A stretch of 64,000 bases of DNA, taken from Escherichia coli. GTDB lineage: Bacteria > Pseudomonadota > Gammaproteobacteria > Enterobacterales > Enterobacteriaceae. Below are positions 17,925 through 52,782 of this stretch, one piece after another. The number at the start of each line of letters is the position of its first letter. The stretch's first letter is position 1. The DNA lies in assembly GCF_044324785.1 (NCBI RefSeq), contig NZ_CP172127.1; one strand, given 5' to 3'. The notes under the pieces were generated by a model. It saw only the letters and a list, made by a program, of their open reading frames with translations. It did not search any database and was not told the origin of the DNA. Position numbers and translations under genes: made by a program.

Positions 17925-17944
17925 TTTTTTTATCCAGCTCACAT

Positions 17945-20146: not shown

Positions 20147-20208
20147 AGAGAGGTACGGAGCCTCAGCTCCGTCCTGTTTCTCAATATTATCCCGTGAGGG
20201 TAAGAATA

Positions 20209-21486: not shown

Positions 21487-22916
21487 TGAAACAGCGTCTT
21501 GCTTTGGCACAGTCTGCCCTTGAAAAACTTTGCGCACGTCGTGGTAATGCCTGGTACCCGATTTTTCATCTGGCTCCACCTGCCGGCTGGATGAATGATC
21601 CAAATGGCCTTATTTACTTCAATGGGCGTTACCATGCGTTCTTCCAGCATCATCCTGCAAGCGCATATCAGGGGCCAATGCACTGGGGGCATGCCACCAG
21701 TACCGACATGTTGCACTGGCAACACGAACCTGTCGCGCTGGCACCCGGAGATAAATATGATCGTGATGGCTGTTTTTCAGGGAGTGCCGTGGATGATGAT
21801 GGCGTGCTATCACTTATTTATACTGGTCATATTTGTCTCGATGATCGTGGTAATGACAGCATTATCCGTGAAGTACAGTGTCTGGCTACAAGTCATGATG
21901 GTATTCACTTTGAGAAGCAGGGCTGTGTGCTGACACCTCCGGAAGGTATAATGCATTTCCGTGATCCCAAAGTCTGGCACGAAGACGGCTCCTGGTGGAT
22001 GGTCATTGGTGCCCGGGACGCTTCTGACAATGGGCAAGTTCTGTTGTATCGCGGGACATCTTTGCGGGACTGGCATCTGGAGCATGTTCTTGCTCATTCC
22101 GCAGCCGGAAAAAGTTATATGTGGGAATGCCCCGATTTCTTCAGGTGTGGTAATTTTCACTGGCTGATGTTCTCACCACAGGGGATGCCCCCTTCCGGTT
22201 ATCGGTTCCGTAACCTTTTTCAGAGCGGTGTGTTGGCAGGGAGCTGGAAGCCTGGTTCTGTCTTTGCGCTGAAAGGGGGATTTGAAGAGCTGGATTATGG
22301 TCATGACTTTTATGCTCCACAGTCCATGCTGGCTGAGGACGGCAGGCGTATCATTATGGCATGGATGAATATGTGGGATTCACCCGTGCCCACCCGCAGT
22401 GAAGCCTGGGCAGGATGTCTGACGCTGCCCAGAGAGGTTTTTGAGCGCGATGGCCGGCTGTGCCAGCGACCTGTGCGTGAAGTCGAATCTCTGCGCAAAA
22501 AATGCCAGCCATTATCCCCTGTAAGGTTACAGGGTTTGCAATTACTGACCGAAAATGTACAGGCCGCAGAATTATTGGTGACGTGGCATACGGTTGACAG
22601 TCATGCGGAGCACTATGGCGTCCGCCTTGGAGACGGTCTGCGACTTTATGTGGATAATCAGGCCGGGCGACTGGTACTGTGGCGCTATTACCCTGAGGAA
22701 GGGTTGGATGGTTACCGCAGTGTTGAACTTCCTGATACAGAATATCTGACTCTTCGTATTTTCTTGGATCGTTCATCTGTTGAAGTGTTTGTTAACGATG
22801 GTGAGGCAACCTTATCAAGTCGTATTTATCCGCAAGCGGACTCGAGACAATTATCGTTATATGCCGCTCATGGCGATGCGATATTAACTGATGGCACTTT
22901 ATGGATGCTGACCTGA
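21486..22916 (+). CDS. rafD: raffinose invertase / sucrose-6-phosphate hydrolase-like (GH32)
   Basis: 476-aa ORF with GH32 motifs (WMNDPNGL, FRDPKV, WECPD). Confidence 0.85.
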   Translation: MKQRLALAQSALEKLCARRGNAWYPIFHLAPPAGWMNDPNGLIYFNGRYHAFFQHHPASAYQGPMHWGHATSTDMLHWQHEPVALAPGDKYDRDGCFSGSAVDDDGVLSLIYTGHICLDDRGNDSIIREVQCLATSHDGIHFEKQGCVLTPPEGIMHFRDPKVWHEDGSWWMVIGARDASDNGQVLLYRGTSLRDWHLEHVLAHSAAGKSYMWECPDFFRCGNFHWLMFSPQGMPPSGYRFRNLFQSGVLAGSWKPGSVFALKGGFEELDYGHDFYAPQSMLAEDGRRIIMAWMNMWDSPVPTRSEAWAGCLTLPREVFERDGRLCQRPVREVESLRKKCQPLSPVRLQGLQLLTENVQAAELLVTWHTVDSHAEHYGVRLGDGLRLYVDNQAGRLVLWRYYPEEGLDGYRSVELPDTEYLTLRIFLDRSSVEVFVNDGEATLSSRIYPQADSRQLSLYAAHGDAILTDGTLWMLT

Positions 22917-23110
22917 GACATATCGATATCAGTATTTTTTCTGACATTATCTGTCATTACTTTGCCAGTACACATTAATTATCTTTGCTGTGTGCTTTTG
23001 GTAATGTGTTGCGATTATATATACCAGTCTGGTGAAGAATATGAATGGTATTTTGTGTTGATACAGAGAATATAAGAGTACCCACATTTGTTTTTATTTA
23101 AGGGGGTAAA

Positions 23111-24505
23111 ATGAATAAGTTACTTTTGGGTTTATCTCTTTTTTTATTACTGGAATACAATGCGTGTGCAGCAAAAACAGGGGGGCTAACGCTTGAACAA
23201 AGAATGGCATTGCTGGAAGAACGCCTGGAAGCTGCAGAAAAAAGGGCGGAAAAAGCAGAAAGAATGTTAAAGAGTTTTGATATAGAACAACATTCTGAAA
23301 TACGTCAAATTAGTTCAGAGCAGAATAAAAAAGATGCTAACAGCTATGCAGTAGTTGAGTCAACAAAAGAAAAAACATCTTCTCCAGGTTTTCTGCTCTC
23401 TGGTTACAATGATTTGAAGTTTTATGGTGATGTGGAGTTTAATATAGATGCTGCCAGTAAACCCGGTCAGTTAGTAATGATAAGTTCCGGGGCGAACAGT
23501 GAGTCAGTGAATGAACGGTGGGACCTTAATGGCCGTATTCTATTAGGTTTTGACGGTACCCGTAAGCTTGATAATGGTTATTTCGCTGGATTTTCAGCAC
23601 AACCACTGGCGGATATGCACGGTTCAGTGAATATTGATGATGCATTATTCTTTTTTGGAAAAGATGACGAGTGGAAAGTGAAAGTCGGTCGTTTTGAAGC
23701 TTACGATATGTTCCCTCTAAATCAGGATACTTTCATTGAGTATTCCGGTAATACAGCTAATGATATTTATGCTGATGGCCGTGGTTATATCTATATGATG
23801 AAAGAGGGACGCGGTCGTTCTGACGCTGGTGGTAATTTCCTCATCAGTAAACAACTCGATAACTGGTATTTTGAGTTAAACACGTTACTTGAAGACGGAA
23901 CATCTTTATATAATAACGGTAATTATCATGGACGATATATGGAGCAGCAGAAAAATGTCGCTTATCTGCGCCCGGTAATTGCCTGGTCGCCAACGGAAGA
24001 ATTCACAGTCTCCGCAGCGATGGAAGCGAACGTGGTAAAAAATGCTTATGGCTATACCGATAATAAGGGGAATTTTGTCGATCAGTCCAATCGTTCCGGT
24101 TATGGTATTAGCATGACATGGAACGGTCTGAAAACAGATCCGGAAAATGGCATCGTGGTTACTCTTAATACCGCCTATTTGGATGCCAGTAATGAGAAAG
24201 ATTTCACTGCCAGTATTAATGCTCTGTGGAAACGTTTCGAACTGGGTTATATCTACGCACATAATAAGATTGATGAATTTAGTGGTGTCGTGTGTAATAA
24301 TGGTTGCTGGATTGATGGTGAAGGAATATACAACATTCACACCATTCATGCATCTTATCAGTTTGCTAATGTGATGGATATGGAGAACTTTAATATTTAC
24401 CTCGGGGCTTATTACTCAATTCTGGATAGTAACTGTAGATATAGTAATTGTGACATTACCGATGATCGTTACGGTGCCCGATTACGTTTCAAATACTTTT
24501 TTTGA
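23111..24505 (+). CDS. rafY: raffinose glycoporin (outer membrane)
   Basis: 464-aa ORF with signal peptide and aromatic-rich C-terminus ending in F, typical of outer-membrane beta-barrels; position after rafD. Confidence 0.7.
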   Translation: MNKLLLGLSLFLLLEYNACAAKTGGLTLEQRMALLEERLEAAEKRAEKAERMLKSFDIEQHSEIRQISSEQNKKDANSYAVVESTKEKTSSPGFLLSGYNDLKFYGDVEFNIDAASKPGQLVMISSGANSESVNERWDLNGRILLGFDGTRKLDNGYFAGFSAQPLADMHGSVNIDDALFFFGKDDEWKVKVGRFEAYDMFPLNQDTFIEYSGNTANDIYADGRGYIYMMKEGRGRSDAGGNFLISKQLDNWYFELNTLLEDGTSLYNNGNYHGRYMEQQKNVAYLRPVIAWSPTEEFTVSAAMEANVVKNAYGYTDNKGNFVDQSNRSGYGISMTWNGLKTDPENGIVVTLNTAYLDASNEKDFTASINALWKRFELGYIYAHNKIDEFSGVVCNNGCWIDGEGIYNIHTIHASYQFANVMDMENFNIYLGAYYSILDSNCRYSNCDITDDRYGARLRFKYFF

Positions 24506-27368: not shown

Positions 27369-27872
27369 TTATTGATAGTGTTTTATGTTCAGATAATGCC
27401 CGATGACTTTGTCATGCAGCTCCACCGATTTTGAGAACGACAGCGACTTCCGTCCCAGCCGTGCCAGGTGCTGCCTCAGATTCAGGTTATGCCGCTCAAT
27501 TCGCTGCGTATATCGCTTGCTGATTACGTGCAGCTTTCCCTTCAGGCGGGATTCATACAGCGGCCAGCCATCCGTCATCCATATCACCACGTCAAAGGGT
27601 GACAGCAGGCTCATAAGACGCCCCAGCGTCGCCATAGTGCGTTCACCGAATACGTGCGCAACAACCGTCTTCCGGAGACTGTCATACGCGTAAAACAGCC
27701 AGCGCTGGCGCGATTTAGCCCCGACATAGCCCCACTGTTCGTCCATTTCCGCGCAGACGATGACGTCACTGCCCGGCTGTATGCGCGAGGTTACCGACTG
27801 CGGCCTGAGTTTTTTAAGTGACGTAAAATCGTGTTGAGGCCAACGCCCATAATGCGTGCACTGGCACGACAT
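27369..27872 (-). CDS. insB: IS1 transposase InsB
   Basis: 167-aa ORF inside IS1. Confidence 0.9.
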
Positions 27873-28066
27873 CCGACGCCATTCATGGCCATATCAATGA
27901 TTTTCTGGTGCGTACCGGGTTGAGAGGCGGTGTAAGTGAACTGTAGTTGCCATGTTTTACGGCAATGAGAGCAGAGATAGCGCTGATGTCCGGCAGTGCT
28001 TTTGCCGTTACGCACCACGCCTTCAGGAGCGGAGCAGGAAGGACATCTGATGGAAATGGAAGCCAC
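27791..28066 (-). CDS. insA: IS1 protein InsA
   Basis: 91-aa [46 protein letters not shown]... with zinc-finger cysteines. Confidence 0.9.
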
Positions 28067-28329: not shown

Positions 28330-28836
28330 GTGAGTCATATGAAGGCAACCAATATAGACCCTCAACTGCTTGAAAAAGCCACGAGTATCTTTGCTGAGTT
28401 GGGCTTACCTATTGAGCAGGCTATTAACGTCTTTTTAGCTAAATCCGTTCAAGCCAAAGGTTTTCCGTTTTCTGTTGCTCTTGAAAATGAAGTAGAGACA
28501 CGGGAAGTTGCACAAACGCAACACAATATCAGCAATGCAGAGATAACCGAAGCTATCCAAGACTTGGTTGAACATGCTCTACCACTGAGTGAAATAGAAA
28601 ACCTCACGCAGCTAACCTATTGTCGCAACATTTTTGGGTTGTCATTCCCCGTGCTCAAACTGGCTAAATCATCACGGCCAGAAGACATTCGCAGTGCAGC
28701 CAAAGATGCCAAAGAGCGAAACCGCTACTCCACCACTAAAGTGGCCCAGCGAGATGAAAAAACCTATGTTATTTGCACCCAATGGACCGACAGACATCGT
28801 TCTGCATTTTGCCGTTGGCAAGCCATCTTTAGCTAG
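28330..28836 (+). CDS. RelB/DinJ-like antitoxin-domain protein with C-terminal extension
   Basis: 168-aa ORF; N-terminal 50 aa resemble the DinJ/RelB ribbon-helix-helix (ATSIFAELGLPIEQAINVFLAKSVQAKGFPF); no toxin ORF adjacent. Confidence 0.5.
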   Translation: MSHMKATNIDPQLLEKATSIFAELGLPIEQAINVFLAKSVQAKGFPFSVALENEVETREVAQTQHNISNAEITEAIQDLVEHALPLSEIENLTQLTYCRNIFGLSFPVLKLAKSSRPEDIRSAAKDAKERNRYSTTKVAQRDEKTYVICTQWTDRHRSAFCRWQAIFS

Positions 28837-28902: not shown

Positions 28903-30882
28903 ATGAACTTACAAGACAAAGAACAAAGCGCCAAACTCTCCAGTGCTATTTGGCGTATGGCAGATGATTTATGGGGTGATTTCAAACACACCGATTTTGC
29001 GCGGATTATCCTGCCATTTTTGCTACTGCGTCGTATTGAATGCGTGTTAGAACCCACCCGTGAGGAAGTTCGTAAGTTCTATCTGGCCGAAAAACAATCC
29101 GGCATAGACCTTGGTTTAGTGTTGCCAGAAATTGCGGGATTCGCCTTTTACAACACCAGTGAATATAGCCTAGAAACCTTAGGCGCGTCAGACACCGGCG
29201 ACAACCTAGAACACTACATCAGCCAGTTCAGCAAAAACGTTCGTACCATCTTTGATGAGTTTAAATTTGGTCAAACCATAGAAGATCTGGAAAAAGCCAA
29301 GTTGCTGTATCGCATGGTAAACCATTTTGCCAACCTCGACTTGCATCCTGATGTAGTGTCTGACCGCGTATTATCAGATGCTTATGAAGAGCTGATTCTA
29401 AAGTTCGCCAGTTCGGTTAATGAAAAGGCCGGGGAATTTATGACCCCGCGTGATGCCGTGCGTCTTGCCACCAAACTGGTGCTGGCGGCGGATGAAGATA
29501 TCTTTAGTGAAAAGGGTGTGATCCGCACCATCTATGACCCAACCTGTGGCACGGGCGGTTTCCTTTCCGATGCCATTAGCCAAATTGAAGAAATGGGCAG
29601 CAGCGCTAAAGTCGTGCCTTTTGGTCAAGAGCTCGACCCCGCGACCCATGCCATGGCGCTGACCAATATGATGATCCGCGGTTTTGATGCCAATAACATC
29701 AAGCAAGGCAACACCTTATCAGACGATCAGTTACGTGCCGACAAGTTTCACTACGGCCTTGCCAACCCGCCATTTGGCATTAAGTGGGAAAAAGCCAAGA
29801 AAGAAGTAGAACGTGAGCACAAACAGCTCAAATACGCCGGACGCTTTGGGCCAGGCCTGCCGAGTATTTCTGATGGTTCAATGCTGTTTTTACTGCACTT
29901 GGTATCAAAAATGGAAACGCCGGAAAATGGTGGTGGCCGAGTGGGTATAGTCCTTTCTGGCTCGCCACTGTTTAATGGCGATGCAGGCTCAGGCCCATCA
30001 GAAATCCGCCGTTGGCTGCTAGAACAAGACTTAGTCGAAGCGATTGTTGCCCTGCCAACCGATATGTTCTTCAACACCGGCATTGGCACCTACATCTGGA
30101 TTTTGACTAACCATAAAGAGCCAAGACGCAAGAATCAGGTGCAACTGATTAACTTGGCAGATATTTGGACTCCCATGCGTAAATCGCAAGGCGATAAGCG
30201 CAAGTACCTGAGTGATGAACAGATTGACGATATTGTCCGTGCGTACGATGGCTTTGAAGCCAGTGACAACTGTAAGATCTTCCAGACTACTGATTTTGCC
30301 TACCGTAAAGTCACCATTCAGCGTCCACTGCGTGCCAAACTAGATATTACCGCTGCGGGCATTGCTGCATTTGTGCAGCAAGATACGTTTAAAAAACTCA
30401 AACCAGAGCAACAAGCGGCATGGGTACAATACCTCACCGATAACCTTGGCCTTCAGCCTTATGAATGGGCACGTTTGGCGGTTAAGAAGAATAACAATAA
30501 GGGTGACTTTGGTAAGTGCTCAAAAGCACTGGCTACGGCCTTAACTGCGCACTTTGTAAAAATTGATCCGCAATTTGAGCCTGCACTGGATGAAAAAGGC
30601 CAAGTGATCGCCGACCCTAAACTCAAAGACACCGAAAGCATTCCTTTTGACCGCGACGTTGAAGATTACTTCGCACAAGAGGTGCTGCCACATGTACCGG
30701 ATGCCTTTATTGATCACTCAGTGCGTGATGAAAAAGACGGCGAAGTGGGCATTGTCGGTTATGAAATTAACTTTAACCGCTATTTCTACCAATACGTGCC
30801 ACCACGCGAGTTGAGTGTGATTGATCGTGAGCTAAAAGCATGTGAAGCGCGCATTCAGGCTCTGCTGAATGAGGTGGCGTAA
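28903..30882 (+). CDS. hsdM: type I restriction-modification system, DNA methyltransferase subunit
   Basis: 659-aa ORF with AdoMet motif DPTCGTGGFL and catalytic NPPFG; TAATG overlap with hsdS. Confidence 0.9.
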   Translation: MNLQDKEQSAKLSSAIWRMADDLWGDFKHTDFARIILPFLLLRRIECVLEPTREEVRKFYLAEKQSGIDLGLVLPEIAGFAFYNTSEYSLETLGASDTGDNLEHYISQFSKNVRTIFDEFKFGQTIEDLEKAKLLYRMVNHFANLDLHPDVVSDRVLSDAYEELILKFASSVNEKAGEFMTPRDAVRLATKLVLAADEDIFSEKGVIRTIYDPTCGTGGFLSDAISQIEEMGSSAKVVPFGQELDPATHAMALTNMMIRGFDANNIKQGNTLSDDQLRADKFHYGLANPPFGIKWEKAKKEVEREHKQLKYAGRFGPGLPSISDGSMLFLLHLVSKMETPENGGGRVGIVLSGSPLFNGDAGSGPSEIRRWLLEQDLVEAIVALPTDMFFNTGIGTYIWILTNHKEPRRKNQVQLINLADIWTPMRKSQGDKRKYLSDEQIDDIVRAYDGFEASDNCKIFQTTDFAYRKVTIQRPLRAKLDITAAGIAAFVQQDTFKKLKPEQQAAWVQYLTDNLGLQPYEWARLAVKKNNNKGDFGKCSKALATALTAHFVKIDPQFEPALDEKGQVIADPKLKDTESIPFDRDVEDYFAQEVLPHVPDAFIDHSVRDEKDGEVGIVGYEINFNRYFYQYVPPRELSVIDRELKACEARIQALLNEVA

Positions 30883-32168
30883 TGAATGCTGGCAACATAG
30901 TAGATGCTTTCGTATCTGACTCGAAATGGAACTCAGTACCAGCTAAACGTTTATTTACGAGTAGCAAAGAAATCAATCAAGGAATGAAAGAATCTAATCG
31001 TCTTGCACTAACAATGAAAGGTGTCATAAACCGCTCGTTAGACGATTTACAAGGACTTCAATCTTCTGATTACTCTGTTTATCAGATTTTTGAAAAAGAT
31101 GACTTAGTTTTTAAGCTCATAGATCTTGAAAATATAAAGACTAGCCGAGTGGGGATTGTGCATGAACGAGGAATAATGAGCCCTGCATACATCCGTGTTT
31201 CAGCGAGTTCAAATAGCATCTACCCAAGGTTCTATTACTGGTACTTTTTTGCTCTATACCTAACCAATATTTATAACAAACTGGGTGGAGGAGTTCGTCA
31301 GAACCTAACAGCTGGTGATCTTTTAGAAATACCTGTTCCACTGATTGATATTTCATTACAGAAGCAGGTTAGCACATTCCTTGATCGCGAAACCCAGCGC
31401 ATCGACAGTCTGATCGAGGAAAAGCAGACCTTTATTAAGCTGCTCAAAGAAAAACGCCAAGCACTGATCAGCCATGTGGTCACAAAGGGGCTCTATCCCA
31501 ATGTGGAGATGCAGGACTCTGGCATCGAGTGGATTGGGCAAGTGCCGAAGCATTGGGAAGTCAAAAAGATAAAGCATATTTGCTCCAACTTTATGTATGG
31601 AACCTCTCAAGACTGTAACCAGTCTGATGTTGGCTATCCTGTTCTCAGGATACCAAACATCAAGAGTACCAATGTTGATTTTGAAGATCTCAAATATGCA
31701 AATATCAGTGATGTTGATGCTTTAACTTATCTTTTATCAAGAGGCGACATTTTAGTCATCAGAACTAACGGTAACCCTAATCTGGTCGGCCAAAGCGCGC
31801 TTTTTGATTCAAATGGGCAGTATTTATTTGCGTCGTACCTAATAAAGTTAACACCAAAGCAAGGAGTGGATACTAGCTTCTTAGTGGAAGCGATGAACTC
31901 ACTATCTGTTCGTCAAGCATTAACATTTCAGTCAAGAACATCGGTAGGTAACTACAACCTGAGCATTCCTTCACTAGCTAATACAAGTATTGCTATCCCA
32001 CCAATTGATGAGCAAAAGACAATAACGAATTACTTGAGTGCAGCAACGATAAACATTGATTTACTGATTCAAGAGACTGATAAATCGATTGATCTTCTAA
32101 AAGAACACCGCACATCGCTGATCAACGCGGCTGTCACAGGAAAAATAGACGTCAGGGAGGCGGTGTAA
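30882..32168 (+). CDS. hsdS: type I restriction-modification system, specificity subunit
   Basis: 428-aa ORF with two-TRD architecture and conserved central and C-terminal repeats (SLIEEKQTFIKLLKEKRQALISHVVTKG / LLKEHRTSLINAAVTGKIDV). Confidence 0.88.
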   Translation: MNAGNIVDAFVSDSKWNSVPAKRLFTSSKEINQGMKESNRLALTMKGVINRSLDDLQGLQSSDYSVYQIFEKDDLVFKLIDLENIKTSRVGIVHERGIMSPAYIRVSASSNSIYPRFYYWYFFALYLTNIYNKLGGGVRQNLTAGDLLEIPVPLIDISLQKQVSTFLDRETQRIDSLIEEKQTFIKLLKEKRQALISHVVTKGLYPNVEMQDSGIEWIGQVPKHWEVKKIKHICSNFMYGTSQDCNQSDVGYPVLRIPNIKSTNVDFEDLKYANISDVDALTYLLSRGDILVIRTNGNPNLVGQSALFDSNGQYLFASYLIKLTPKQGVDTSFLVEAMNSLSVRQALTFQSRTSVGNYNLSIPSLANTSIAIPPIDEQKTITNYLSAATINIDLLIQETDKSIDLLKEHRTSLINAAVTGKIDVREAV

Positions 32169-35100
32169 TGGCTGCACATCATGAAGTGCATTTTGAACAA
32201 TATATTACCGAGCAGTTGGTGAACAATGGCTGGAAAGAAGGCCATTCCTGCCACTATGACCAGCAACGCGCCCTTTACCCGCAAGATGTCATGGATTGGG
32301 TAAAGGCCACCCAGCCAGATGCCTGGCACAAACTGAATAAACTGCATGGTGTGAATGCCGAGCAGGTGCTGTTGGAGCGTTTGGAAAAAGCCCTCTCTTC
32401 CCACAAAGCTGGCAGTAAAACAGGTGGCACCATTAATGTGCTGCGTAAAGGCTTTACCATTGCAGGTTGCGGCACGATTGCCATGGGCCAACGCAAACCC
32501 GAAGATGCGCGCAATGAAGAGCGTATAGCCCGTTATGAGCACAACATTTTGCGCGTGGTGCGCCAACTGAAATATTGCCCGACTCGCGAGTGGGAAATTG
32601 ACTTGGTGTTCTTTATCAACGGTCTACCCGTTGCCACCGCCGAGCTAAAAACCGATTTTACCCAGTCGCTAGAATCGGCGATTGCGCAGTACAAAGAGGA
32701 TCGTCTGCCCGTTGACCCAAAAACCAAGCGTAAAGAGCCGCTGTTAACCTTTAAACGCGGTGCAGTGGTACATTTTGCCATGTCTGATACAGAAATCGCC
32801 ATGGCGACCAAACTGGCGGGAGAAAATACCTATTTTCTGCCCTTCAATAAAGGCCATGATGGTTCTACCTCTGATTTGCCCGTACACATCAACTTGCCGG
32901 GTGAAGATGGAGAGTATCCGGTCAGCTATTTTTGGCAAGAAATTGCCCAAAAAGATAATTGGCTACGCATTTTCTACAGCTTTGTGTATGTCGAAACCAA
33001 AGAGGTTGCCGATAGCAATGGCAAGGTTGAGCGTAAGGAAACACAGATTTTTCCGCGTTATCATCAGTTAGCCGCAGTCAACAAGATGATTGATGATGCC
33101 CGCCAGAACGGCGCAGGCATGCAGTATCTTTGTGAGCACAGCGCCGGTTCGGGAAAAACCTCTACCATAGCCTGGACGGCCCATGATTTGATTCGTTTAC
33201 GCAGCACCGATGGTAAAGCGGTCTTTAAATCAGTGATCATTGTGACCGACCGCACCGTGCTGGATTCGCAGTTGCAAGATGCGGTGCAACAGCTGGATCA
33301 TCAATATGGGGTGATTAAGGTGATTGATCGCGAAAAGAGCAGCGAGTCGAAATCAAAACAGCTGACTGAAGCGCTATTGACTGGCACGCCGATCATTGTA
33401 GTGACGATTCAAACCTTCCCATATGCGTTAGAAGCGATTCTGACCAATCAATCTTTGGCACAAAGTAACTTTGCGGTGATCATCGATGAAGCACACACCT
33501 CGCAAACAGGCTCTACAGCCAAAGGGTTACGCGCAGCGCTTACTCTAAACCTTAGCCCTCAAGAGTTGGAGCAAATGAGCATTGAGGACATTCTTACTAA
33601 GGTGCAAGAAGCGCGCGCCATGCCCAAGAACGTTTCGCACTTTGCTTTTACGGCAACACCCAAGCACAGCACCAAGATGTTGTTTGGCCGCCCGAAAGAC
33701 CCTAACCAACCAGTGTCAGATGACAATCTTCCTGAATCGTTCCACCTCTACACCCAACGTCAGGCCATTGATGAGGGTTTTATTCTTGATGTGCTGGAGA
33801 ATTACACCCACTACGATACAGCCTACAAAATTGGTGAGAACAATCTGGATGAGAAGCGCGTAGACAGCAAACAAGCTCGCCGCGCGTTGGCGCGCTGGAT
33901 GTCACTGCACCCAACCACGGTCAGCCAAAAAGTCGAATTTATTATTAAGCACTTCAAGGCCAATATCGCTCACCTACTGGAAGGTGAAGCCAAAGCCATG
34001 GTGGTCACATCGGGCAGGCCACAGGCGGTGAAATACAAGCTTGCTTTTGATAAATACATTAAAAAGCATGGTATTGAAGGTATCCAAGCCTTGGTTGCCT
34101 TCTCGGGCAAAGTCCCCGGCAAAGATTTGGGTGATGAAGACAGCCAAGACCCGCTAGAAATTGATTTCGATAAAGAGTACACCGAGTACAACTTAAACCC
34201 AGACACGCACGGGGCTGACCTGCGCCATGAGTTTGAGAAAACCGAATATCGCGTCATGTTAGTCGCCAACAAGTTCCAAACGGGCTTTAATCAACCAAAA
34301 CTGGTTGCCATGTATTTGGATAAGAAAATATCCGATGTAGAAGCGGTGCAAACGCTGTCTCGCCTAAACCGCACCTATCCAGGCAAAGACACAACCTTCG
34401 TGATTGATTTTGTTAACGATCCACAAACCATTCTCAATGCGTTCAAAAAGTACGACAAAGGCGCGCAGCTTAATGAAGTGCAAGATGTGAACGTCATCTA
34501 TGACATCAAAGATATTTTGGATGAACAGAACATATACAACCATCAAGATTTAGAGTTGTTTAAGCAAGCGCGTGGTAAATCGATTCTCGGCCAATCACCT
34601 GACAAAAAGTCACACGCGCACAAGAAACTGCTAGCTGCCACACAACGCCCTACCGATGTGTTCAACGTTAAGCTCAAAGAGCTGGTTGATGCTGCAAACC
34701 ATTGGGATCAGCAATACAACAAAGCGCACCTTGCGGGTGATGAAAAAGCGGCGAACTACGCAGAATCTCAGCGCAGTGATTTCACCAAGCAGCGCGAAGC
34801 ACTAATGCGTTTTAAGTCAGATTTAGCTCGATTTGTGAAGCACTATAGCTATATGGCGCAATTGATTGAGTTTGGTGATCCTGAACTGGAAAACTTTGCC
34901 GCGTTTGCTCATTTGCTATCACGTCGATTGAAAGGGGTAACACCAGAAAACATCGATCTCAGTGCACTGGTACTAGAAAAATTCAAAATCAAATACGACA
35001 AAGAGCCGCTTCCAGAAGCGTTTAATCAGGTACTTGAACCTATCCGCCCCAACTATAACGACCCTGCGGATCGTGAACAGGCATTTCTTGCCGATATCAT

Positions 35101-35404
35101 TCGCCGCCTAAACGAACTGTTTGGCGATGTCGGCGACGAACCCGGTCGCCGAAACTTTGCCAACGGTACTATTACGCGTGTCACCCAAAATCCAATTGTG
35201 GTTGAGCAGATAGAAAAGCACGACAAGTCGATTGCCCTCAAAGGCGACTTGCCGCAAGCGGTGAAGCAAGCCGTTGTGCAGGCTCTGCTGAAAGAAGGTG
35301 ATATAGCCCGAACGCTACTCAAAGACCCACAAGTTATGGCAAGTTATGTTGAGTTGATTTTTGACATGATGAAGCAAGGTGCAGAACAGGCGGCGGTGAA
35401 ATAA
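32168..35404 (+). CDS. hsdR: type I restriction-modification system, restriction endonuclease/helicase subunit
   Basis: 1078-aa ORF with Walker A (SAGSGKT), DEAH-like VIIDEAH and helicase motifs; TAATG overlaps on both sides. Confidence 0.9.
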   Translation: MAAHHEVHFEQYITEQLVNNGWKEGHSCHYDQQRALYPQDVMDWVKATQPDAWHKLNKLHGVNAEQVLLERLEKALSSHKAGSKTGGTINVLRKGFTIAGCGTIAMGQRKPEDARNEERIARYEHNILRVVRQLKYCPTREWEIDLVFFINGLPVATAELKTDFTQSLESAIAQYKEDRLPVDPKTKRKEPLLTFKRGAVVHFAMSDTEIAMATKLAGENTYFLPFNKGHDGSTSDLPVHINLPGEDGEYPVSYFWQEIAQKDNWLRIFYSFVYVETKEVADSNGKVERKETQIFPRYHQLAAVNKMIDDARQNGAGMQYLCEHSAGSGKTSTIAWTAHDLIRLRSTDGKAVFKSVIIVTDRTVLDSQLQDAVQQLDHQYGVIKVIDREKSSESKSKQLTEALLTGTPIIVVTIQTFPYALEAILTNQSLAQSNFAVIIDEAHTSQTGSTAKGLRAALTLNLSPQELEQMSIEDILTKVQEARAMPKNVSHFAFTATPKHSTKMLFGRPKDPNQPVSDDNLPESFHLYTQRQAIDEGFILDVLENYTHYDTAYKIGENNLDEKRVDSKQARRALARWMSLHPTTVSQKVEFIIKHFKANIAHLLEGEAKAMVVTSGRPQAVKYKLAFDKYIKKHGIEGIQALVAFSGKVPGKDLGDEDSQDPLEIDFDKEYTEYNLNPDTHGADLRHEFEKTEYRVMLVANKFQTGFNQPKLVAMYLDKKISDVEAVQTLSRLNRTYPGKDTTFVIDFVNDPQTILNAFKKYDKGAQLNEVQDVNVIYDIKDILDEQNIYNHQDLELFKQARGKSILGQSPDKKSHAHKKLLAATQRPTDVFNVKLKELVDAANHWDQQYNKAHLAGDEKAANYAESQRSDFTKQREALMRFKSDLARFVKHYSYMAQLIEFGDPELENFAAFAHLLSRRLKGVTPENIDLSALVLEKFKIKYDKEPLPEAFNQVLEPIRPNYNDPADREQAFLADIIRRLNELFGDVGDEPGRRNFANGTITRVTQNPIVVEQIEKHDKSIALKGDLPQAVKQAVVQALLKEGDIARTLLKDPQVMASYVELIFDMMKQGAEQAAVK

Positions 35405-35958
35405 TGAATACTGCGTTTCGGGTTTTACTTACGTTCAATGCAACATCACTACTAGTGATTATCTTTGCGGTACAAAAAGGGTACTCACTCGGATATTTCT
35501 TTGGTGGTTTCGCTTGCTTCGATTGGATAGCAGCACTTCCGAACGCAGTATCATATTTACTCTATTTTCTTATCCCTGTTTTATCGACTGGATTGAGTAT
35601 TTGGCTGAGTAAGTATTTGGGTAAAGACGATTTTAAGGCGGGTGAAGTAGCGAGTATTGAGCATGCCAATAACAGCTTCCTACCAAGTTATTTGGGTTAC
35701 TTTTTCGTGGCGTTGAGCATTGGTAACTGGGAGACATTGTGGTTTGTTTATGGCGTTTTGTTTGTTTTTACTCTCTTATCGCAAGCACTCTACTTTAACC
35801 CATTGTTTTTACTGTTTGGTTATGAGTTTTATAACATTACAACCAAAAACGGAACGGCCATTTTCCTTATTAGCCGAGAGCGCTACAAGAAGCCAGATGA
35901 CATCGAAATATCATTGGCTTATCGAATCAATAATTACACATTTATCGAGCGAGGATAA
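35404..35958 (+). CDS. uncharacterised predicted membrane protein (about 4 TM), candidate defence-system component
   Basis: 184-aa ORF with four hydrophobic segments; start codon overlaps the hsdR stop (TAATG) and its own stop overlaps the next gene. Confidence 0.6.
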   Translation: MNTAFRVLLTFNATSLLVIIFAVQKGYSLGYFFGGFACFDWIAALPNAVSYLLYFLIPVLSTGLSIWLSKYLGKDDFKAGEVASIEHANNSFLPSYLGYFFVALSIGNWETLWFVYGVLFVFTLLSQALYFNPLFLLFGYEFYNITTKNGTAIFLISRERYKKPDDIEISLAYRINNYTFIERG

Positions 35959-36800
35959 TGATGGACCATGTACTGGCACATATAAAAACTAGAGCAAAAA
36001 AACGCATTTTCAAATTGGTTTCTGATCAATCTCTTTTTGATACCGTCACAATCGACTTAAATGCCTGTATTCCATACAATCCAGACCATAACCTTGACGA
36101 AGACTCATGGTTTAAAATTGAAGACTTTAGTCAAAAAGAGTTTTGTATTGAACTGCTAAAAAAAGACTATGATTCAAAAGACTACGATGACTTAACCAAA
36201 GATAACTTCGCCAAGATCGCCTACTTATTTGCAATTCAAGGTAATGATTTTTACTTTCAAAAAATCACTCCAAGCCTATTCGTAAAACGCAAAACGCTTG
36301 TTTTTGGTGAAGCCGCAGAAATTGAGAAGAGCCAAACACGTTTAGTAATAAACGCCTTACCTGATGCAGTGTACTTCAAAGTGGCCGATACCTTGATATT
36401 CAAAAATCTGGCAACGATCTCGAGCATTTTTAAAGGTATCGATGAGTTGTACAAGGAAGCAACAAAAGAAGAAGTTGAGCAGTTTTTAGATGCACAGTTT
36501 ATAGAGTTGGGTAATGACTACAACGTAGATAGCGTCTCAAAACCTAATAGAAAACGTATTGGCCTTGCTATGGCAACACTTGATGCGATGTCTGCTGACG
36601 ATAAAGCTAACATGCTTGATTATATCGACGGTTACTGCGGTGAACAGAAGCTGAAATTCGATAAAGAAAATCAGAAGTTTGAAATATCTAATGACGATGA
36701 GTTGAAGTTACTGCTTTATGGCATTGAACAACGCTTCTATACGACCCCGTTTGGCAAAGAAAAAAGGCTCGCTAACTCTGTAACCGCTATGGATAAATAA
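35958..36800 (+). CDS. uncharacterised 280-aa soluble protein, candidate defence-system component
   Basis: translationally coupled to the upstream membrane-protein gene (TAATG); AT-rich; no motif recognised by eye. Confidence 0.6.
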   Translation: MMDHVLAHIKTRAKKRIFKLVSDQSLFDTVTIDLNACIPYNPDHNLDEDSWFKIEDFSQKEFCIELLKKDYDSKDYDDLTKDNFAKIAYLFAIQGNDFYFQKITPSLFVKRKTLVFGEAAEIEKSQTRLVINALPDAVYFKVADTLIFKNLATISSIFKGIDELYKEATKEEVEQFLDAQFIELGNDYNVDSVSKPNRKRIGLAMATLDAMSADDKANMLDYIDGYCGEQKLKFDKENQKFEISNDDELKLLLYGIEQRFYTTPFGKEKRLANSVTAMDK

Positions 36801-36820: not shown

Positions 36821-37870
36821 ATGAAGGTTGATTCAATGGCCGATAACATCCCACAAGCTCCTCAAGGTGAGTTTGTTCTTTTCACCAGTGCTGATGGTCA
36901 AACCCGCGTTGAGTGTCGTTTTGAGTCTGACACCTTGTGGCTTTCTCAGGCTGCAATGGCAGAGCTTTATCAAGTTAGCTCTCAAGCAATCACCCAACAC
37001 GTAAAAGCTGTCTATTCTGAAGAAGAGCTTGAGCAAATTTCAACTTGTAAGGATTACTTACAAGTTCAACTGGAAGGTGGCAGAGAAGTAAAGCGAAGCA
37101 TTCGTCACTACAGTCTTCCGGTTATTCTTGCAGTAGGATACCGAGTTCGCTCAACACGTGGCACCCAGTTCCGCCAATGGGCAACCAGAATGTTGCAAGA
37201 ATACCTAATCAAAGGATTCGTCATGGATGACGAGCGCCTGAAAAATCCGCCCATTGGCCATTCTGCTGTGCCAGATTACTTTGATGAAATGCTGGAACGC
37301 ATTCGTGATATCCGAGCTAGTGAGCGTCGCGTTTATCTGCGAGTCAAAGAAATCTTTACCATGGCTGCTGATTACGAGCCATCTAACCAAGAGACCAACC
37401 GCTTCTTCCAAACCATTCAGAATAAGCTGCATTATGCTTGTACGCATATGACGGCTGCTGAGCTTATCGCCAGCCGTGTGGATGCCAGTAAGCCGGATAT
37501 GGGCTTAACCAGCTATAAAGGCGATGAAGTGCGCAAGACAGACGTTACTGTTGCCAAGAACTATTTGCGTGAAGACGAAATCAAAGAGCTTAATCGCATC
37601 GTCAATATGTGGCTCGACTTTGCTGAAGACCAAGCACTGCGTCGCAAGCAGGTATTTTTACAGGACTGGGCCGATAAGCTTGACCAGTTCTTGAGTTTTA
37701 ACGATAGAGATGTATTAAACGGTGCAGGAAAAATCTCCAAGAAAGACGCTGATGACAAAGCGAAATTGGAGTTTGACCGCTTTGCCCAGCAGCGCCGTCG
37801 TTTAAAAGAAGCCGAAGGCGCACGGGCCAATATCGCAGCCCTCAAGGCCATACTAAAAAAAGATAAATAG
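36821..37870 (+). CDS. RhuM-family virulence/defence-island protein
   Basis: 349-aa ORF; N-terminal region (FTSADGQTRVECRFESDTLWLSQAAMAELYQVSSQAITQHVKAVY...VAYRVRSTRGTQFRQWATRMLQEYLIKGF) is typical of the RhuM family. Confidence 0.7.
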   Translation: MKVDSMADNIPQAPQGEFVLFTSADGQTRVECRFESDTLWLSQAAMAELYQVSSQAITQHVKAVYSEEELEQISTCKDYLQVQLEGGREVKRSIRHYSLPVILAVGYRVRSTRGTQFRQWATRMLQEYLIKGFVMDDERLKNPPIGHSAVPDYFDEMLERIRDIRASERRVYLRVKEIFTMAADYEPSNQETNRFFQTIQNKLHYACTHMTAAELIASRVDASKPDMGLTSYKGDEVRKTDVTVAKNYLREDEIKELNRIVNMWLDFAEDQALRRKQVFLQDWADKLDQFLSFNDRDVLNGAGKISKKDADDKAKLEFDRFAQQRRRLKEAEGARANIAALKAILKKDK

Positions 37871-37927: not shown

Positions 37928-38314
37928 CTATAAAGGATTATCCATCTTAAAATCGTCGATATCGCCTGTCATTTTGAATAGATTGGTGTCATTCCAACGG
38001 CACAGTTGTCTAACCCGCATTAGATTTGAGTTGGCTCTGCGGATTATTGAGAAAGCATCTTCAACAGCAGTAATCACCGATTTTTCCCAATCTTGTGCTC
38101 GGGTAAAGGTGCTTTGTGAATAGCGATAATTGCCCTCACGGGGGAGGTAATGGCTGATCACCTGGTATTTGTCAGAATTCTTTTTAGGTTTAAACTCGTT
38201 GTAAACCCAGAAAATTTCGAGTTTTTTGTTTCTTTGCCTTACACGACAACCAAAATGACCTGGGTAGCCTTCAGAGTTTTTACCTCTATGTGCAACGTTG
38301 TTCAGCCAGAACAA
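37928..38314 (-). CDS. hypothetical protein (start uncertain)
   Basis: 128-aa AT-rich ORF between the RhuM gene and an IS3-family element. Confidence 0.35.
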   Translation of the reverse strand: MFWLNNVAHRGKNSEGYPGHFGCRVRQRNKKLEIFWVYNEFKPKKNSDKYQVISHYLPREGNYRYSQSTFTRAQDWEKSVITAVEDAFSIIRRANSNLMRVRQLCRWNDTNLFKMTGDIDDFKMDNPL

Positions 38315-48780: not shown

Positions 48781-48795
48781 ACCAACGTTTTTATG
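48770..48795. promoter_or_regulatory. candidate gix/cix-like crossover site 2
   Basis: reverse complement CATAAAAACG-TT-GGTTTGGGGGAAGG, inverted relative to site 1; lies between the tail-fibre stop and cassette B. Confidence 0.5.
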
Positions 48796-50719
48796 CGGCC
48801 CTTACGATGTAATTAAACGCAACATTGCGGGGGCGCATTGATATCCATGCCCCGGTAAAATTATCCTCCGCTGTCCTTTGAATACCCGTTATAGAGTTAT
48901 CTGCTGATGCAGGAACATAATCGCTATTATTTCCTGCTTTAGGATTAGCTGGGTTTCCAACGGTTATAACAGAATCAGCAGTAGCAAAAGCGATACCTAC
49001 TTTGACATTAGTATTCAGATCGTAACCGTAATAATCCTGCAAAGCTGTACGAATAAATGTTGCAGCCTGACCACTTAGCAATGAACGCCCCGTATCAACT
49101 TTGCGCCCGTCGTCCCATCCACGGATAAACTCACCGCGCAAATCGGGAAGACGGAGGGTCGGGTAGACTCTGGCCAGAACAGGATATTGTTCTTTTGTAA
49201 AGGCGCGCCCGTCACACTTTAACCAGCCTGCTGGCGGTGTGGCGGTGGGCCATGGAACAGGCACACCAACAGGCAGTGCAGAGCCTTCCCCCAAACCAAG
49301 GTAATTGAGGACATCTTTTATACTGCCCTTAGCGATAATAGCGCGACCAATAGCTGTAAGGGTTGCCAGCGCTGCGCGGTCTGCTCCGGTAAAATAAGGC
49401 AACCGATCTGCTGCAGTGGCAAGTCCTGCCAGAGCAGTGAGCGTGGCATCTGCCGGTTGTTTTCCGTTTGCCAGATCGTATGCAGCCTTGACCGCTTTCG
49501 GTGTGGCGGCCAGTATTTCAGACGTGCTGTTGATGGCACTGCTCAATTGTATGGTGCCTTTTGCCGTCAGCGAGGCAGCAGGCACTCCCGTTATCTGACT
49601 CCACGGGTGAGTGTGGCTGACGGGCGCCTTGCCGGCTGCAAGGTCGTATGCAGCCTTGACCGCCTTCGGCGTGGCAGCCTCAGTTTCTGATTGACTGTCC
49701 GTGGCGCTGCTCAGTTGTACGGTGCCTTTTGCCGTCAGCGAGGCAGCAGGCACTCCCGTTATCTGACTCCACGGGTGAGTGTGGCTGACGGGGGCCTTGC
49801 CGGCAGCCAGGTCATATGCAGCCTTGACGGCCTTTGGTGTGGCGGCCAGCGTTTCAGAGGTGCTGTTGGTGGCACTGCTCAGTTGTACGATCCCTTTACG
49901 GGTCGTTGTTGCATCCTGGGCTGTGTATTTTCCCCGGGCCAGATCATACGCGATTTTCACAGCCTTCGGCGTGGCAGCCTCAGTTTCTGATTGACTGTCC
50001 GTGGCGCTGCTCAGTTGTACGGTGCCTTTTGCCGTCAGCGAGGCAGCAGGCACTCCCGTTATCTGACTCCACGGGTGAGTGTGGCTGACGGGGGCCTTGC
50101 CGGCAGCTAGGTCATATGCAGCCTTGACGGCCTTTGGTGTGGCGGCCAGCGTTTCAGAGGTGCTGTTGGTGGCACTGCTCAGTTGTACGATCCCTTTACG
50201 GGTCGTTGTTGCATCCTGGGCTGTGTATTTTCCCCGGGCCAGATCATACGCGATTTTCACAGCCTTCGGCGTGGCAGCCTCAGTTTCTGATTGACTGTCC
50301 GTGGCACTGCTCAGCTGTACGGTGCCTTTTGCCGTCAGCGAGGCAGCAGGCACTCCCGTTATCTGACTCCACGGGTGAGTGTGACTGACGGGTGCCTTGC
50401 CGGCTGCAAGGTCGTATGCAGCCTTGACGGCTTTTGGTGTGGCGGCCAGCGTTTCAGAGGTGCTGTTGGTGGCACTGCTCAGTTGGGTGAACCCCTTAGC
50501 TGTCAGTGTCGCGTCCGGGTGGTTACGGGAACGTACGTGTTCAGCCAGTGACTGTGCGGCTTCCTCCGTTTTTTTCTTCAGCCATTTCGTCCTGTTTGCC
50601 AGTTGCCGGGGGGCTCGATTTGATATCCCGTCAGCACCACCCAGAACCGGATCTGATGTCTCCAGTTGATAGATTTTTTCTTCCCACTTTTCTGTTTCAT
50701 TCAGGTTTCCCATAATCAA
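48791..50719 (-). CDS. phage tail fibre protein with repeat-containing shaft and C-terminal domain A
   Basis: 642-aa ORF; central about 100-aa tandem repeats (SETLAATPKAVKAAYDLAAGK...); C-terminus GLGEGSALPVGVPVPWPT...NYIVRAA. Confidence 0.85.
   Translation of the reverse strand: MIMGNLNETEKWEEKIYQLETSDPVLGGADGISNRAPRQLANRTKWLKKKTEEAAQSLAEHVRSRNHPDATLTAKGFTQLSSATNSTSETLAATPKAVKAAYDLAAGKAPVSHTHPWSQITGVPAASLTAKGTVQLSSATDSQSETEAATPKAVKIAYDLARGKYTAQDATTTRKGIVQLSSATNSTSETLAATPKAVKAAYDLAAGKAPVSHTHPWSQITGVPAASLTAKGTVQLSSATDSQSETEAATPKAVKIAYDLARGKYTAQDATTTRKGIVQLSSATNSTSETLAATPKAVKAAYDLAAGKAPVSHTHPWSQITGVPAASLTAKGTVQLSSATDSQSETEAATPKAVKAAYDLAAGKAPVSHTHPWSQITGVPAASLTAKGTIQLSSAINSTSEILAATPKAVKAAYDLANGKQPADATLTALAGLATAADRLPYFTGADRAALATLTAIGRAIIAKGSIKDVLNYLGLGEGSALPVGVPVPWPTATPPAGWLKCDGRAFTKEQYPVLARVYPTLRLPDLRGEFIRGWDDGRKVDTGRSLLSGQAATFIRTALQDYYGYDLNTNVKVGIAFATADSVITVGNPANPKAGNNSDYVPASADNSITGIQRTAEDNFTGAWISMRPRNVAFNYIVRAA
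49284..49309. promoter_or_regulatory. candidate crossover site 3 inside the tail-fibre gene
   Basis: reverse complement CTCAATTACC-TT-GGTTTGGGGGAAGG encoding NYLGLGEG at the constant/variable junction; same orientation as site 2. Confidence 0.4.
49390..50520. repeat. 300-bp tandem repeats (about 3.5 copies) inside the tail-fibre gene
   Basis: identical 71-aa and 84-aa antisense ORFs recur 300 bp apart (49779/50079 and 49834/50134); protein shows repeated ...SSATNSTSETLAATPKAVKAAYDLAAGKAPVSHTHPWSQITGVPAASLTAKGTVQLSSATDSQSETEAATPKAVK... Confidence 0.85.
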
Positions 50720-51306
50720 CTGCTCCCGTGGTTATAACTGCCATCATGGATGGCGGTATTGTTATAGCGAATGGCCACAGACTGATACTCCAGGCTGGCC
50801 AGATGGCAGCGGGCCGGTGCAAATGCAGCGAGCGTCTGACGCAGCATCGCGGCCTGATCGTTAGTAATGGGCTGTTTCAGAATAACGCGATAAACCGCCC
50901 AGGCGGCTGCATCTCCATGAACAAACAGTCCGTTATAGCTGCGATTGCCGTCGTAACTGAGACGACCTGTGCCTTCAATCAGATCCACTTCACCAAAGCC
51001 AAAACGGCGGATAACTTCCCGGATTGACCACGGCGTCCCTTTATACCGGTGTAGTTCGATGGCTGCTTTTATAAGCATGCGGCGAACATCGTCCGATTCC
51101 GCCAGCTCCCAGCCATCGCCAGACAGTGAGAACTGCTCGCCCAGCCATGGCAGCGCAGAACTGTCGACGATATCGACGAGAAAGACCATCAGTACGCTCA
51201 GGTCGATGTTATCCAGCCGCCCTGCCAGTCTTCCCAGCGTCCTGAGACTGATATCACCCTCAAGCGGTGGCGGGAGTTGTAATGGCTCAGTCATCAGACA
51301 CTCCAC
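50716..51306 (-). CDS. phage baseplate/tail protein (P2 gpI-like)
   Basis: 196-aa ORF directly upstream of the tail fibre, overlapping the J-like gene. Confidence 0.6.
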   Translation of the reverse strand: MECLMTEPLQLPPPLEGDISLRTLGRLAGRLDNIDLSVLMVFLVDIVDSSALPWLGEQFSLSGDGWELAESDDVRRMLIKAAIELHRYKGTPWSIREVIRRFGFGEVDLIEGTGRLSYDGNRSYNGLFVHGDAAAWAVYRVILKQPITNDQAAMLRQTLAAFAPARCHLASLEYQSVAIRYNNTAIHDGSYNHGSS

Positions 51307-52390: not shown

Positions 52391-52728
52391 AGCAACTCCT
52401 GAGTCCGGGTCTGTCCGTCTGAGCCTTTCCAGCTCACCCGGAGCGTAAGATGTTCGCCGTCGACGGCGGGTTTAACTGACATAAGCTGGCAGCGGGGCTC
52501 CCAGCGTCGGATGGCATCGACGGATTCGCGCACCACATGCGGAATGGCCCGGTCTACAGGCCAGTCGATATAAAGATGCAGATTGCTGCCGAACTCCGGG
52601 CGATGCGGGTCGCTGCCGCGGGGAGTCCGCAGGATAATTTGAATCGCCTGCCGGATATCATCCAGCCCCCGGACAATTTCGCCGGGAGCCTGCAGGGTCG
52701 GTTGCCAGAATACTGAGGTTGTTTTCAT
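52381..52728 (-). CDS. phage baseplate wedge protein (GPW/gp25 family)
   Basis: 115-aa ORF overlapping the J-like gene. Confidence 0.7.
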   Translation of the reverse strand: MKTTSVFWQPTLQAPGEIVRGLDDIRQAIQIILRTPRGSDPHRPEFGSNLHLYIDWPVDRAIPHVVRESVDAIRRWEPRCQLMSVKPAVDGEHLTLRVSWKGSDGQTRTQELLWR

Positions 52729-52782
52729 GGGGGCAGTATTGCCCCCGTGCGGGAACGCTGATATTAAAGGCGTTTAAAAAGC

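Follow-up and report, generated by a model that had tools for sequence, protein, structure and literature searches.

A divergent Kiwa-like gene pair directly downstream of hsdR in a type I restriction-modification operon of Escherichia coli

Two genes that follow a type I restriction-modification (R-M) operon in Escherichia coli encode proteins that are homologous, in sequence and in fold, to KwaA and KwaB of the Kiwa system. Kiwa (KwaA/KwaB) has been characterized in E. coli O55:H7 RM12579 and ECOR49, and structures are available under 9mrx, 9mrr, 9mrg, 9mtn, and 9nyu (PMC11785009). With considerable confidence, we assign the pair to a divergent Kiwa clade, called KwaB_2 by DefenseFinder, located at the 3' end of the R-M operon and probably expressed together with it. 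The pair thus belongs to a defence family that is already known, in which it is unexceptional, and not to a new class of system; the point of note is how often restriction operons carry this Kiwa clade at their tail.

Anatomy of the operon and its neighbours

The window (the whole stretch of 64,000 nucleotides that was analysed) contains a type I R-M operon on the plus strand in which the open reading frames for all three subunits are present, intact, and named in RefSeq. These are the methyltransferase subunit HsdM (28903..30882, 659 aa), the specificity subunit HsdS (30882..32168, 428 aa), and the restriction/translocase subunit HsdR (32168..35404, 1078 aa). The respective matches to TIGR00497 (5e-29), NF007278 (8e-30), and TIGR00348 (1e-48) fall below the equivalog cutoffs. 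The kwaA-like gene (35404..35958, 184 aa) and the kwaB-like gene (35958..36800, 280 aa) follow on the same strand, and their limits and lengths are exactly those given in a sequence-only reading of this DNA. That reading also described hsdM, hsdS, hsdR, and the two genes as chained by TAATG stop/start overlaps, and TAATG was found at all four junctions (30882, 32168, 35404, and 35958), the stop and start codons overlapping by one base at each. The hsdR stop codon and the kwaA start codon thus have one base in common (the junction reads AAATAATGAAT), and kwaA and kwaB are adjacent and co-oriented with a 1-nt overlap. Purine-rich motifs resembling Shine-Dalgarno sequences (GAGGTGG, GGGAGG, GGTGA, and GAGG) are located a few bases 5' of each junction start. 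A consensus scan inside the block revealed no prominent promoter-like or terminator-like sites, the counts being no higher than the shuffle expectation. From the arrangement of the genes and their junctions we infer that the five genes are co-transcribed and translationally coupled.

A gene of the RhuM family (36836..37870, plus strand) begins 35 nt downstream of kwaB on the same strand and is probably the last gene of the hsdMSR-kwaAB unit. It matches the PADLOC candidate PDC-S05 (8e-167) and is named 'virulence RhuM family protein' in RefSeq. A RhuM-family gene also follows kwaB in the Vibrio loci L006/L007, in L009 (which is without R-M), and in the Bacteroidota locus L075. On the other side, 66 nt 5' of hsdM, lies a gene annotated in RefSeq (28339..28836, plus strand) whose product has a RelB/DinJ-like N-terminal domain (TIGR02384, 1.7e-10, residues 7-78). 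A homologue (cluster c15) is found upstream of hsdM in L006/L007, and the gene context makes it possible that this protein regulates the operon.

Relationship of the two proteins to KwaA and KwaB

The sequence-only reading proposed about four transmembrane (TM) segments for the 184-aa protein, and the hydropathy profile, with three strong peaks and a shorter fourth segment, agrees with this. In the AF2 model (pLDDT 90.2), four long helices (2-25, 47-71, 93-105, and 109-126) are accompanied by beta strands within 73-87 and 141-182. The protein is thus modelled as four membrane helices and, on the cytoplasmic side, a beta-rich module to which the TM2-TM3 loop and the C-terminus both contribute. 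The published topology of KwaA (PMC11785009) likewise comprises four TM helices, with the TM2-TM3 loop and the C-terminus making up a cytoplasmic beta-barrel, and the matching arrangement of helices and strands supports the identification of the protein as a KwaA. Nine PADLOC KwaA models match it, the best with an E-value of 9.3e-16 over residues 2-182 of 184. When the AF2 model was compared with the PDB using Foldseek, the only significant matches were to the KwaA chains 9mrx_A, 9mrr_D, and 9mrg (probability 1.00); the match to 9mrx_A has an E-value of 1e-4 and TM-scores of 0.62/0.59, and the next match has E > 3. The NCBIfam KwaA equivalog NF041622 gives 25.4 bits against a cutoff of 100. 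A Pfam scan of the single protein returned no match; its relatives carry the precomputed Pfam family PF28043, and the newest RefSeq name for the protein itself (WP_001090220.1) is 'KwaA family protein'.

The 280-aa protein has no hydrophobic segment, as expected from the earlier description of it as soluble, and consists of a beta-rich N-terminal half and a helical C-terminal half of the DUF4868 type. The PADLOC KwaB models, which are described as 'DUF4868 domain', match residues 33-276 (7.1e-14). Foldseek comparison of the AF2 model (pLDDT 92.9) with the PDB gave significant matches to the KwaB chains 9mtn, 9mrx_D, and 9nyu only (E-values of 7e-7 to 6e-6, probability 1.00, TM-scores of 0.54-0.62), with full-length alignments of 316-331 columns, and the next match has an E-value of 0.75. 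The AFDB50 neighbours, at 20-43% identity, grade into proteins named 'DUF4868 domain-containing protein'. The Pfam search for DUF4868 that had been suggested as a check gives a false negative, as a Pfam scan of the single protein that included the KwaB model PF16162 returned no match; PF16162 matches 3 of 66 diverse members of the family (E <= 1e-3). The models of PADLOC, a tool that had been suggested alongside it, match both proteins.

It had been proposed from gene architecture that the pair is Kiwa or, if not, an undescribed defence system. The second reading, in which the pair is unrelated to Kiwa and shares only the order and size of its genes, could draw on the absence of a Pfam match for either protein and on the RefSeq label, which is mostly 'hypothetical protein' for both. 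Additionally, neither phmmer searches with the single proteins nor hmmsearch with the two family profiles found a Kiwa chain among the PDB sequences, the family profiles giving no sequence match to any PDB chain, and the link to the solved KwaA and KwaB chains was made by fold comparison only, at 11-20% identity and a TM-score of about 0.6. However, the PADLOC KwaA and KwaB models match the two proteins nearly full length, both folds match KwaA and KwaB exclusively and over the full length, the family grades continuously into DUF4868 proteins, and it carries Kiwa labels in DefenseFinder as well as in RefSeq. An unrelated system is ruled out by the PADLOC and Foldseek matches of both proteins; we regard that reading as vanishingly improbable, and the Kiwa proposal is the one that stood.

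The window pair and canonical Kiwa are both two-gene operons in which kwaA precedes kwaB. Both KwaA proteins have four TM helices, and in both the TM2-TM3 loop combines with the C-terminus into a beta module. Both KwaB proteins are soluble and two-domain, and the C-terminal half, of the DUF4868 type in canonical KwaB, is probably of that type in the window protein as well. The differences are that the KwaB of the window is about 35 residues shorter (280 versus about 315 aa), that the window genes are fused to hsdR without a promoter region of their own, that identity is low, and that neither Pfam's KwaB model nor the KwaA equivalog of NCBIfam recognises them. As these two models miss the clade, most of its records are entered as 'hypothetical' or as 'ATP F0F1 synthase synthase', and recognising its KwaB under such labels improves counts of defence systems.

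Proposed mode of action

Kiwa operons lower conjugation and protect against phages, and all five operons taken from different phylogenetic clusters had anti-phage activity; the DNA-binding protein KwaB is inhibited by Gam, which is partitioned as an inhibitor between KwaB and RecBCD (PMC11785009). By extrapolation from these operons, tested elsewhere, the KwaB_2 clade may be expected to be active, to respond to the same trigger, and to bind DNA, and complex formation and anti-phage activity of the window pair are predicted on the same grounds. A KwaA tetramer in the inner membrane would hold KwaB dimers on its cytoplasmic beta-barrel. The complex would be activated by a disturbance of the membrane where a phage attaches or conjugation occurs, and KwaB would bind the incoming DNA without cutting it, blocking replication and late transcription. 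Entering DNA would thus meet two independent layers, the restriction enzyme and Kiwa. In the first, unmodified DNA would be cut by the restriction enzyme, and in the second, Kiwa would act at any methylation state and so would also cover modified phages.

Distribution of the pair and its linkage to type I R-M

Related loci were searched with a 12-sequence alignment of the family, and the 80 loci most similar to the query, which are not independent of one another, were retained. The kwaA-kwaB pair is kept in about 78 of them, from several phyla (Proteobacteria, Bacteroidota, Firmicutes, and Actinobacteria), and in 76 of the 78 kwaA is directly followed by kwaB, with spacings from a 26-nt overlap to 6 nt apart. 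Two distant metagenomic loci also have the pairing. Vibrio supplies the closest relatives of the two window proteins, at 96-98% identity. KwaB of the window clade is widespread: it makes up 534 clusters at 50% identity and is present in 109 of 5426 complete E. coli genomes. A decayed remnant is rejected, as the pair is intact and identical in 76 genomes and conserved across phyla.

Among the 73 informative loci, all from the KwaB_2 clade, 44 show the pair immediately preceded by a type I R-M gene in the same orientation, and the gap to it is -8 to +6 nt in 33 of these. The linked loci show three gene orders, with kwaAB placed between hsdS and hsdR in four cases (L053, L056, L067, and L073), and carry at least nine HsdR families that are interleaved on the KwaB tree. 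The block hsdM-hsdS-hsdR-kwaA-kwaB-rhuM is shared, at 35-47% identity, between E. coli/Vibrio and a genome of the Bacteroidota. In 24 of the 73 loci, E. coli itself being represented among them, the pair has no type I R-M gene nearby and stands alone or behind other defence operons; operons other than type I R-M with the pair at their tail are type III R-M, Lamassu, PDC-M26, and PDC-S06. The pair is a clean example of a defence cassette that other defence operons, most of all those of type I R-M, carry at their tail. DefenseFinder calls 'Kiwa KwaB_2' in Vibrio pangenomes are tabulated, without further treatment, as cluster 308 (Table 2 of PMC12409351); this cluster is of the same protein family as the window KwaB, goes under an equally odd legacy label, the identical 'ATP F0F1 synthase', and likewise co-occurs with KwaA and the R, S, and M genes of type I R-M. 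A literature search for a paper on a bias of Kiwa toward type I R-M operons found none, that table entry being the one mention.

The model of two independent layers does not by itself predict a strong bias toward type I R-M operons, and a functional integration of KwaB_2-clade Kiwa with type I R-M that goes beyond co-location deserves consideration. The pair might bring the restriction complex to the site of DNA entry, or keep it there, and so concentrate restriction at that site, or it might serve as a back-up or decoy once DNA mimics such as Ocr and ArdA have disabled HsdMS. The latter finds an analogy in the binding of the DNA mimic Gam to canonical KwaB and the sharing of this inhibitor with RecBCD (PMC11785009). 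If true, integration would account for the fusion of the pair, across phyla and in three gene orders, with hsd operons of at least nine families, and the tight junctions, the loci with kwaAB flanked by hsdS and hsdR, the interleaving of HsdR families, and the conserved six-gene block all speak for it. However, the 44 of 73 count comes from the KwaB_2 clade only and from non-independent loci chosen for similarity to the query. The loci where type I R-M is absent also argue against integration, and the use of the tails of varied defence operons fits a general tail preference better than a specific partnership. Additionally, kwaAB is poorer in GC (0.37-0.39) than hsdM and hsdR (0.48), which is in line with the insertion of a cassette, and the embedded systems TgvAB and DarTG2 work independently. 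On balance we consider integration unlikely, and Kiwa acting as an independent cassette is preferred.

A further reading would make both proteins accessory or regulatory subunits of the restriction enzyme that do not themselves act in defence; they might, for instance, anchor it to the membrane or control restriction alleviation. It draws on the fusion of the operon by stop/start codon overlaps and on the membrane association that has been reported for type I restriction enzymes. However, one third of the loci are without R-M and, to our knowledge, type I R-M systems in general lack KwaA/KwaB-like genes. The homology of both proteins to an autonomous defence system (PMC11785009) also argues against this reading. 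As the pair is also found without R-M, an R-M accessory subunit is rejected, and we judge it highly improbable that the proteins have only such a role. The placement of the pair at the tail of type I R-M operons offers a ready test of whether Kiwa and restriction are additive or cooperative on incoming DNA.

Defence genes embedded in type I R-M operons have already been described. PrrC is embedded in EcoprrI, a type I R-M operon whose enzyme physically restrains it. DarTG2 is embedded in EPEC RMS, a type I R-M operon (PMC12255303), and TgvAB in a type I R-M operon of V. cholerae VPI-2 (10.1101/2024.04.04.588119), and both work on their own. The view of type I R-M loci as hotspots for embedded defence cassettes, also expressed in the sequence-only reading, agrees with published cases. 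The window pair resembles PrrC, DarTG2, and TgvAB in being a second defence module in or at the end of an hsd operon; it is likewise predicted to be co-expressed with the operon, to be autonomous, and to complement the restriction of unmodified DNA. A dependence of the PrrC type on the adjacent type I R-M is not seen in the window clade, given the loci where type I R-M is absent. The position also differs, as the three known modules lie between hsdS and hsdR whereas the window pair follows hsdR. The effector of the window pair is predicted to be a membrane-held, non-nucleolytic DNA binder, in contrast to the toxin, anticodon nuclease, or type IV enzyme found in the known modules.

Anatomy of the five-gene block

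The block consists of five co-oriented genes: hsdM (28903-30882), hsdS (30882-32168), hsdR (32168-35404), a kwaA-like ORF encoding 184 aa (35404-35958) and a kwaB-like ORF encoding 280 aa (35958-36800). The ORF calls for the three hsd genes agree with NCBIfam and RefSeq. At four of four junctions the stop codon and the next start codon share one base in a TAATG, and a Shine-Dalgarno-like purine run lies shortly 5' of each; the chain of overlaps described in the sequence-only reading was thus confirmed in both its ORF coordinates and its junctions. This gene anatomy points to a block that is probably co-transcribed and translationally coupled. The GC content is 0.48 in hsdM and hsdR, 0.40 in hsdS, 0.39 in kwaA and 0.37 in kwaB. 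The low values of kwaAB and of the variable hsdS are consistent with a history different from that of the hsdM/hsdR backbone, and an AT-richer kwaAB is expected of an inserted cassette.

A gene of 165-168 aa (28339-28836, + strand), whose product has a RelB/DinJ-like N-terminal domain and no assignment for its C-terminal half, lies 66 nt 5' of hsdM, with a homologue at the same position in the related Vibrio loci L006 and L007. By analogy with RptR, which has such a role in other type I R-M islands, it could be the operon regulator. An IS1 copy (27369-28066, - strand) is found ~270 nt 5' of this gene and may have supplanted or modified the native promoter.

Assignment of the two proteins to Kiwa

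Nine PADLOC KwaA models match the 184-aa protein (best E 9.3e-16, residues 2-182) and three PADLOC KwaB models match the 280-aa protein (best E 7.1e-14, residues 33-276). Pfam scans gave no match for either protein, the NCBIfam scan matched no family for the 280-aa protein, and the NCBIfam KwaA equivalog scored 25 bits against the 184-aa protein, under its cutoff of 100. PDB sequence searches with single sequences and family profiles of both proteins reached no Kiwa chain. Because the curated libraries and PDB sequence searches missed both proteins, the fold was tested. The AlphaFold model of the 184-aa protein, built from 43 relatives (pLDDT 90.2), has four long helices, with strands contributed by the TM2-TM3 loop and by the C-terminus, which is the topology of KwaA (PMC11785009), and its significant PDB fold matches are KwaA chains only (9mrx_A, 9mrr_D and 9mrg). 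Hydropathy shows three strong peaks with one additional, shorter hydrophobic stretch, in agreement with the approximately four TM segments proposed earlier. The model of the 280-aa protein, for which 66 diverse relatives were aligned (pLDDT 92.9), significantly matches only KwaB chains solved by crystallography or cryo-EM (9mtn, 9mrx_D and 9nyu; probability 1.00, TM 0.54-0.62, full length, ~11% identity), and the next match has an E of 0.75. Three of the 66 family members are recognised by Pfam's KwaB model (formerly DUF4868), and the AFDB50 neighbours of the 280-aa protein form a continuous range from 'ATP F0F1 synthase synthase' to 'DUF4868 domain-containing', which ties the protein to the DUF4868/KwaB superfamily. 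Thus both genes are Kiwa components, as the sequence-only reading had suggested as a possibility from their architecture, and belong to a remote clade.

In the newest RefSeq the small protein is named 'KwaA family protein' and the 280-aa protein is still 'hypothetical'. The precomputed database entries assign Pfam family PF28043 to the KwaA partner and no Pfam domain to the KwaB family, which is listed in NCBI, UniRef and AFDB under a meaningless legacy name, 'ATP F0F1 synthase synthase'. A Vibrio pangenome study (PMC12409351) lists a cluster with type I R-M genes and members labelled 'Kiwa-KwaB_2' and 'Kiwa-KwaA' by DefenseFinder; its KwaB_2 member bears the old label 'ATP F0F1 synthase; hypothetical protein'. 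Most sources use this legacy label for the relatives of the 280-aa protein. From the DefenseFinder labels in Vibrio and the RefSeq name, standard defence finders would therefore call the locus Kiwa, and the fallback proposal of an undescribed defence system fails; the rival reading of a non-Kiwa system is refuted. The clade is recognised by defence finders and under-annotated by Pfam and NCBIfam.

Autonomy of the pair and its link to restriction operons

Within a library of 1.84 billion representatives, the 280-aa family falls into 534 clusters at 50% identity, and near-identical copies (82-98%) are present in Vibrio, Shewanella, Aeromonas, Plesiomonas, Alteromonas and Proteus. The 9.7-kb block of the window is present in 76 of 5426 complete E. 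coli genomes, in all of them on the chromosome, and ~66% identical versions of the pair are found in 33 further E. coli genomes. One such version lies 135 nt 3' of a different hsdMSR in a tRNA-Leu island and another stands alone beside a PAPS-reductase/IbrB-like gene pair, in a neighbourhood free of R-M genes. In the 80 related loci most similar to the query (one genome per species) the kwaA-kwaB order and spacing are kept in essentially all, and two distant metagenomic relatives retain the pair, one in a polysaccharide cluster and one in another defence island. The kept order and spacing together with the stand-alone and non-R-M contexts establish kwaA-kwaB as an autonomous two-gene module. 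An R-M accessory role for the two proteins is unlikely because the pair occurs without R-M.

The usual kwaA/kwaB spacing is -4 to +6 nt; in a Vibrio and Photobacterium subclade (loci L022-L024, L028 and L062) kwaA has ~10 additional codons and a 26-nt overlap with kwaB, and L028 and L062 have an extra small gene (cluster c5, ~226 aa) between hsdR and kwaA.

Both genes are present in 78 loci, and the removal of five cut by contig ends leaves 73 that are informative. A co-oriented type I R-M gene is directly upstream in 44 of these, and in 33 of the 44 its stop codon overlaps the start of kwaA or lies no more than 6 nt from it; type I genes are nearby and non-adjacent in 5 loci and absent from 24. 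Three gene orders were observed (R-M-S-kwaAB, M-S-kwaAB-R and, in the window, M-S-R-kwaAB), the partner HsdR proteins belong to at least nine families, and R-M-linked and unlinked loci are interleaved in the KwaB tree. The M-S-R-kwaA-kwaB-rhuM block of E. coli/Vibrio recurs in full in a Dysgonomonas genome, with 35-47% identity. The bias towards type I R-M is real in the sample of the 80 most query-similar loci, as counted within this Kiwa clade only. The remaining value of the locus lies in correcting its annotation and in this bias of the clade to the tail of type I R-M operons, which none of the papers found in the literature search discusses.

A genuine functional link between the pair and type I R-M, through recruitment at the DNA entry site or as a back-up against DNA-mimic anti-restriction proteins, would explain the bias, and the back-up version has an analogy in the partitioning of Gam between KwaB and RecBCD. 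We consider it improbable: in loci without type I R-M the pair is often attached to type III R-M (4-nt overlap), Lamassu, PDC-M26, PDC-S06 or a type IV-like helicase, and the AT-richness of kwaAB relative to hsdM/hsdR also argues against a specific partnership. The contexts suggest that the pair has a general habit of riding at the tails of defence operons. It is seen at the 3' end of type III R-M, Lamassu, PDC-M26 and PDC-S06 in loci L070 (7499-9999), L082 (3913-9993), L009 (4767-9998) and L078 (5537-10001).

With the homology, anatomy and autonomy shown by the pair, the best-supported reading is a working Kiwa system, all of its activity being ascribed by analogy with the published model (PMC11785009). 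KwaA tetramers in the membrane would carry KwaB dimers, the complex would be activated by disturbance at sites of phage attachment or conjugation, and KwaB would bind the entering DNA without cutting it, blocking replication and late transcription (PMC11785009). The position behind hsdR would result in the co-expression of two layers against incoming DNA, one methylation-dependent and the other methylation-independent. This arrangement has parallels in other embedded modules, among them PrrC. Two more are DarTG2, from a type I system of EPEC (PMC12255303), and TgvAB in V. cholerae VPI-2 (10.1101/2024.04.04.588119). Further systems are also known to reside in the type I R-M loci of E. coli (PMC10121019).

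Island context

A RhuM-family gene (36836-37870, + strand; PADLOC candidate PDC-S05, E 8e-167) begins 35 nt 3' of kwaB. The same family is found 3' of kwaB in Vibrio L006/L007, in L009 (no R-M) and in Bacteroidota L075, and it may move together with the Kiwa pair and not with the restriction genes. Directly after rhuM is mobI(A/C) (37928-38314, - strand; RefSeq), which in IncA/C plasmids and SXT/R391 elements is a factor for conjugative transfer, beside IS3, IS5 and IS66 debris. This neighbourhood and the closest relatives of the block, which are from Vibrio (96-98% protein identity), suggest that it derived from a mobilisable island of marine Gammaproteobacteria.

DsbD (12831-14609) is encoded upstream of a tRNA-Phe gene (15328-15403), which starts a region (15328-24505) with a tyrosine integrase (15550-16764) followed by a sugar-utilisation set (regulator, alpha-galactosidase, MFS transporter, GH32 hydrolase and porin). 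From this order, the R-M/Kiwa block belongs to an island at tRNA-Phe, which in strain 1517k is found beside yqgA, at the other tRNA-Phe gene. A phage-tail-like cluster (48791-62000, - strand) with baseplate-like (51287-52390), VgrG-related (53376-54548), tape measure (55632-58844) and tail-tube-like (60240-61667) genes could represent either a tailocin or the remains of a prophage.
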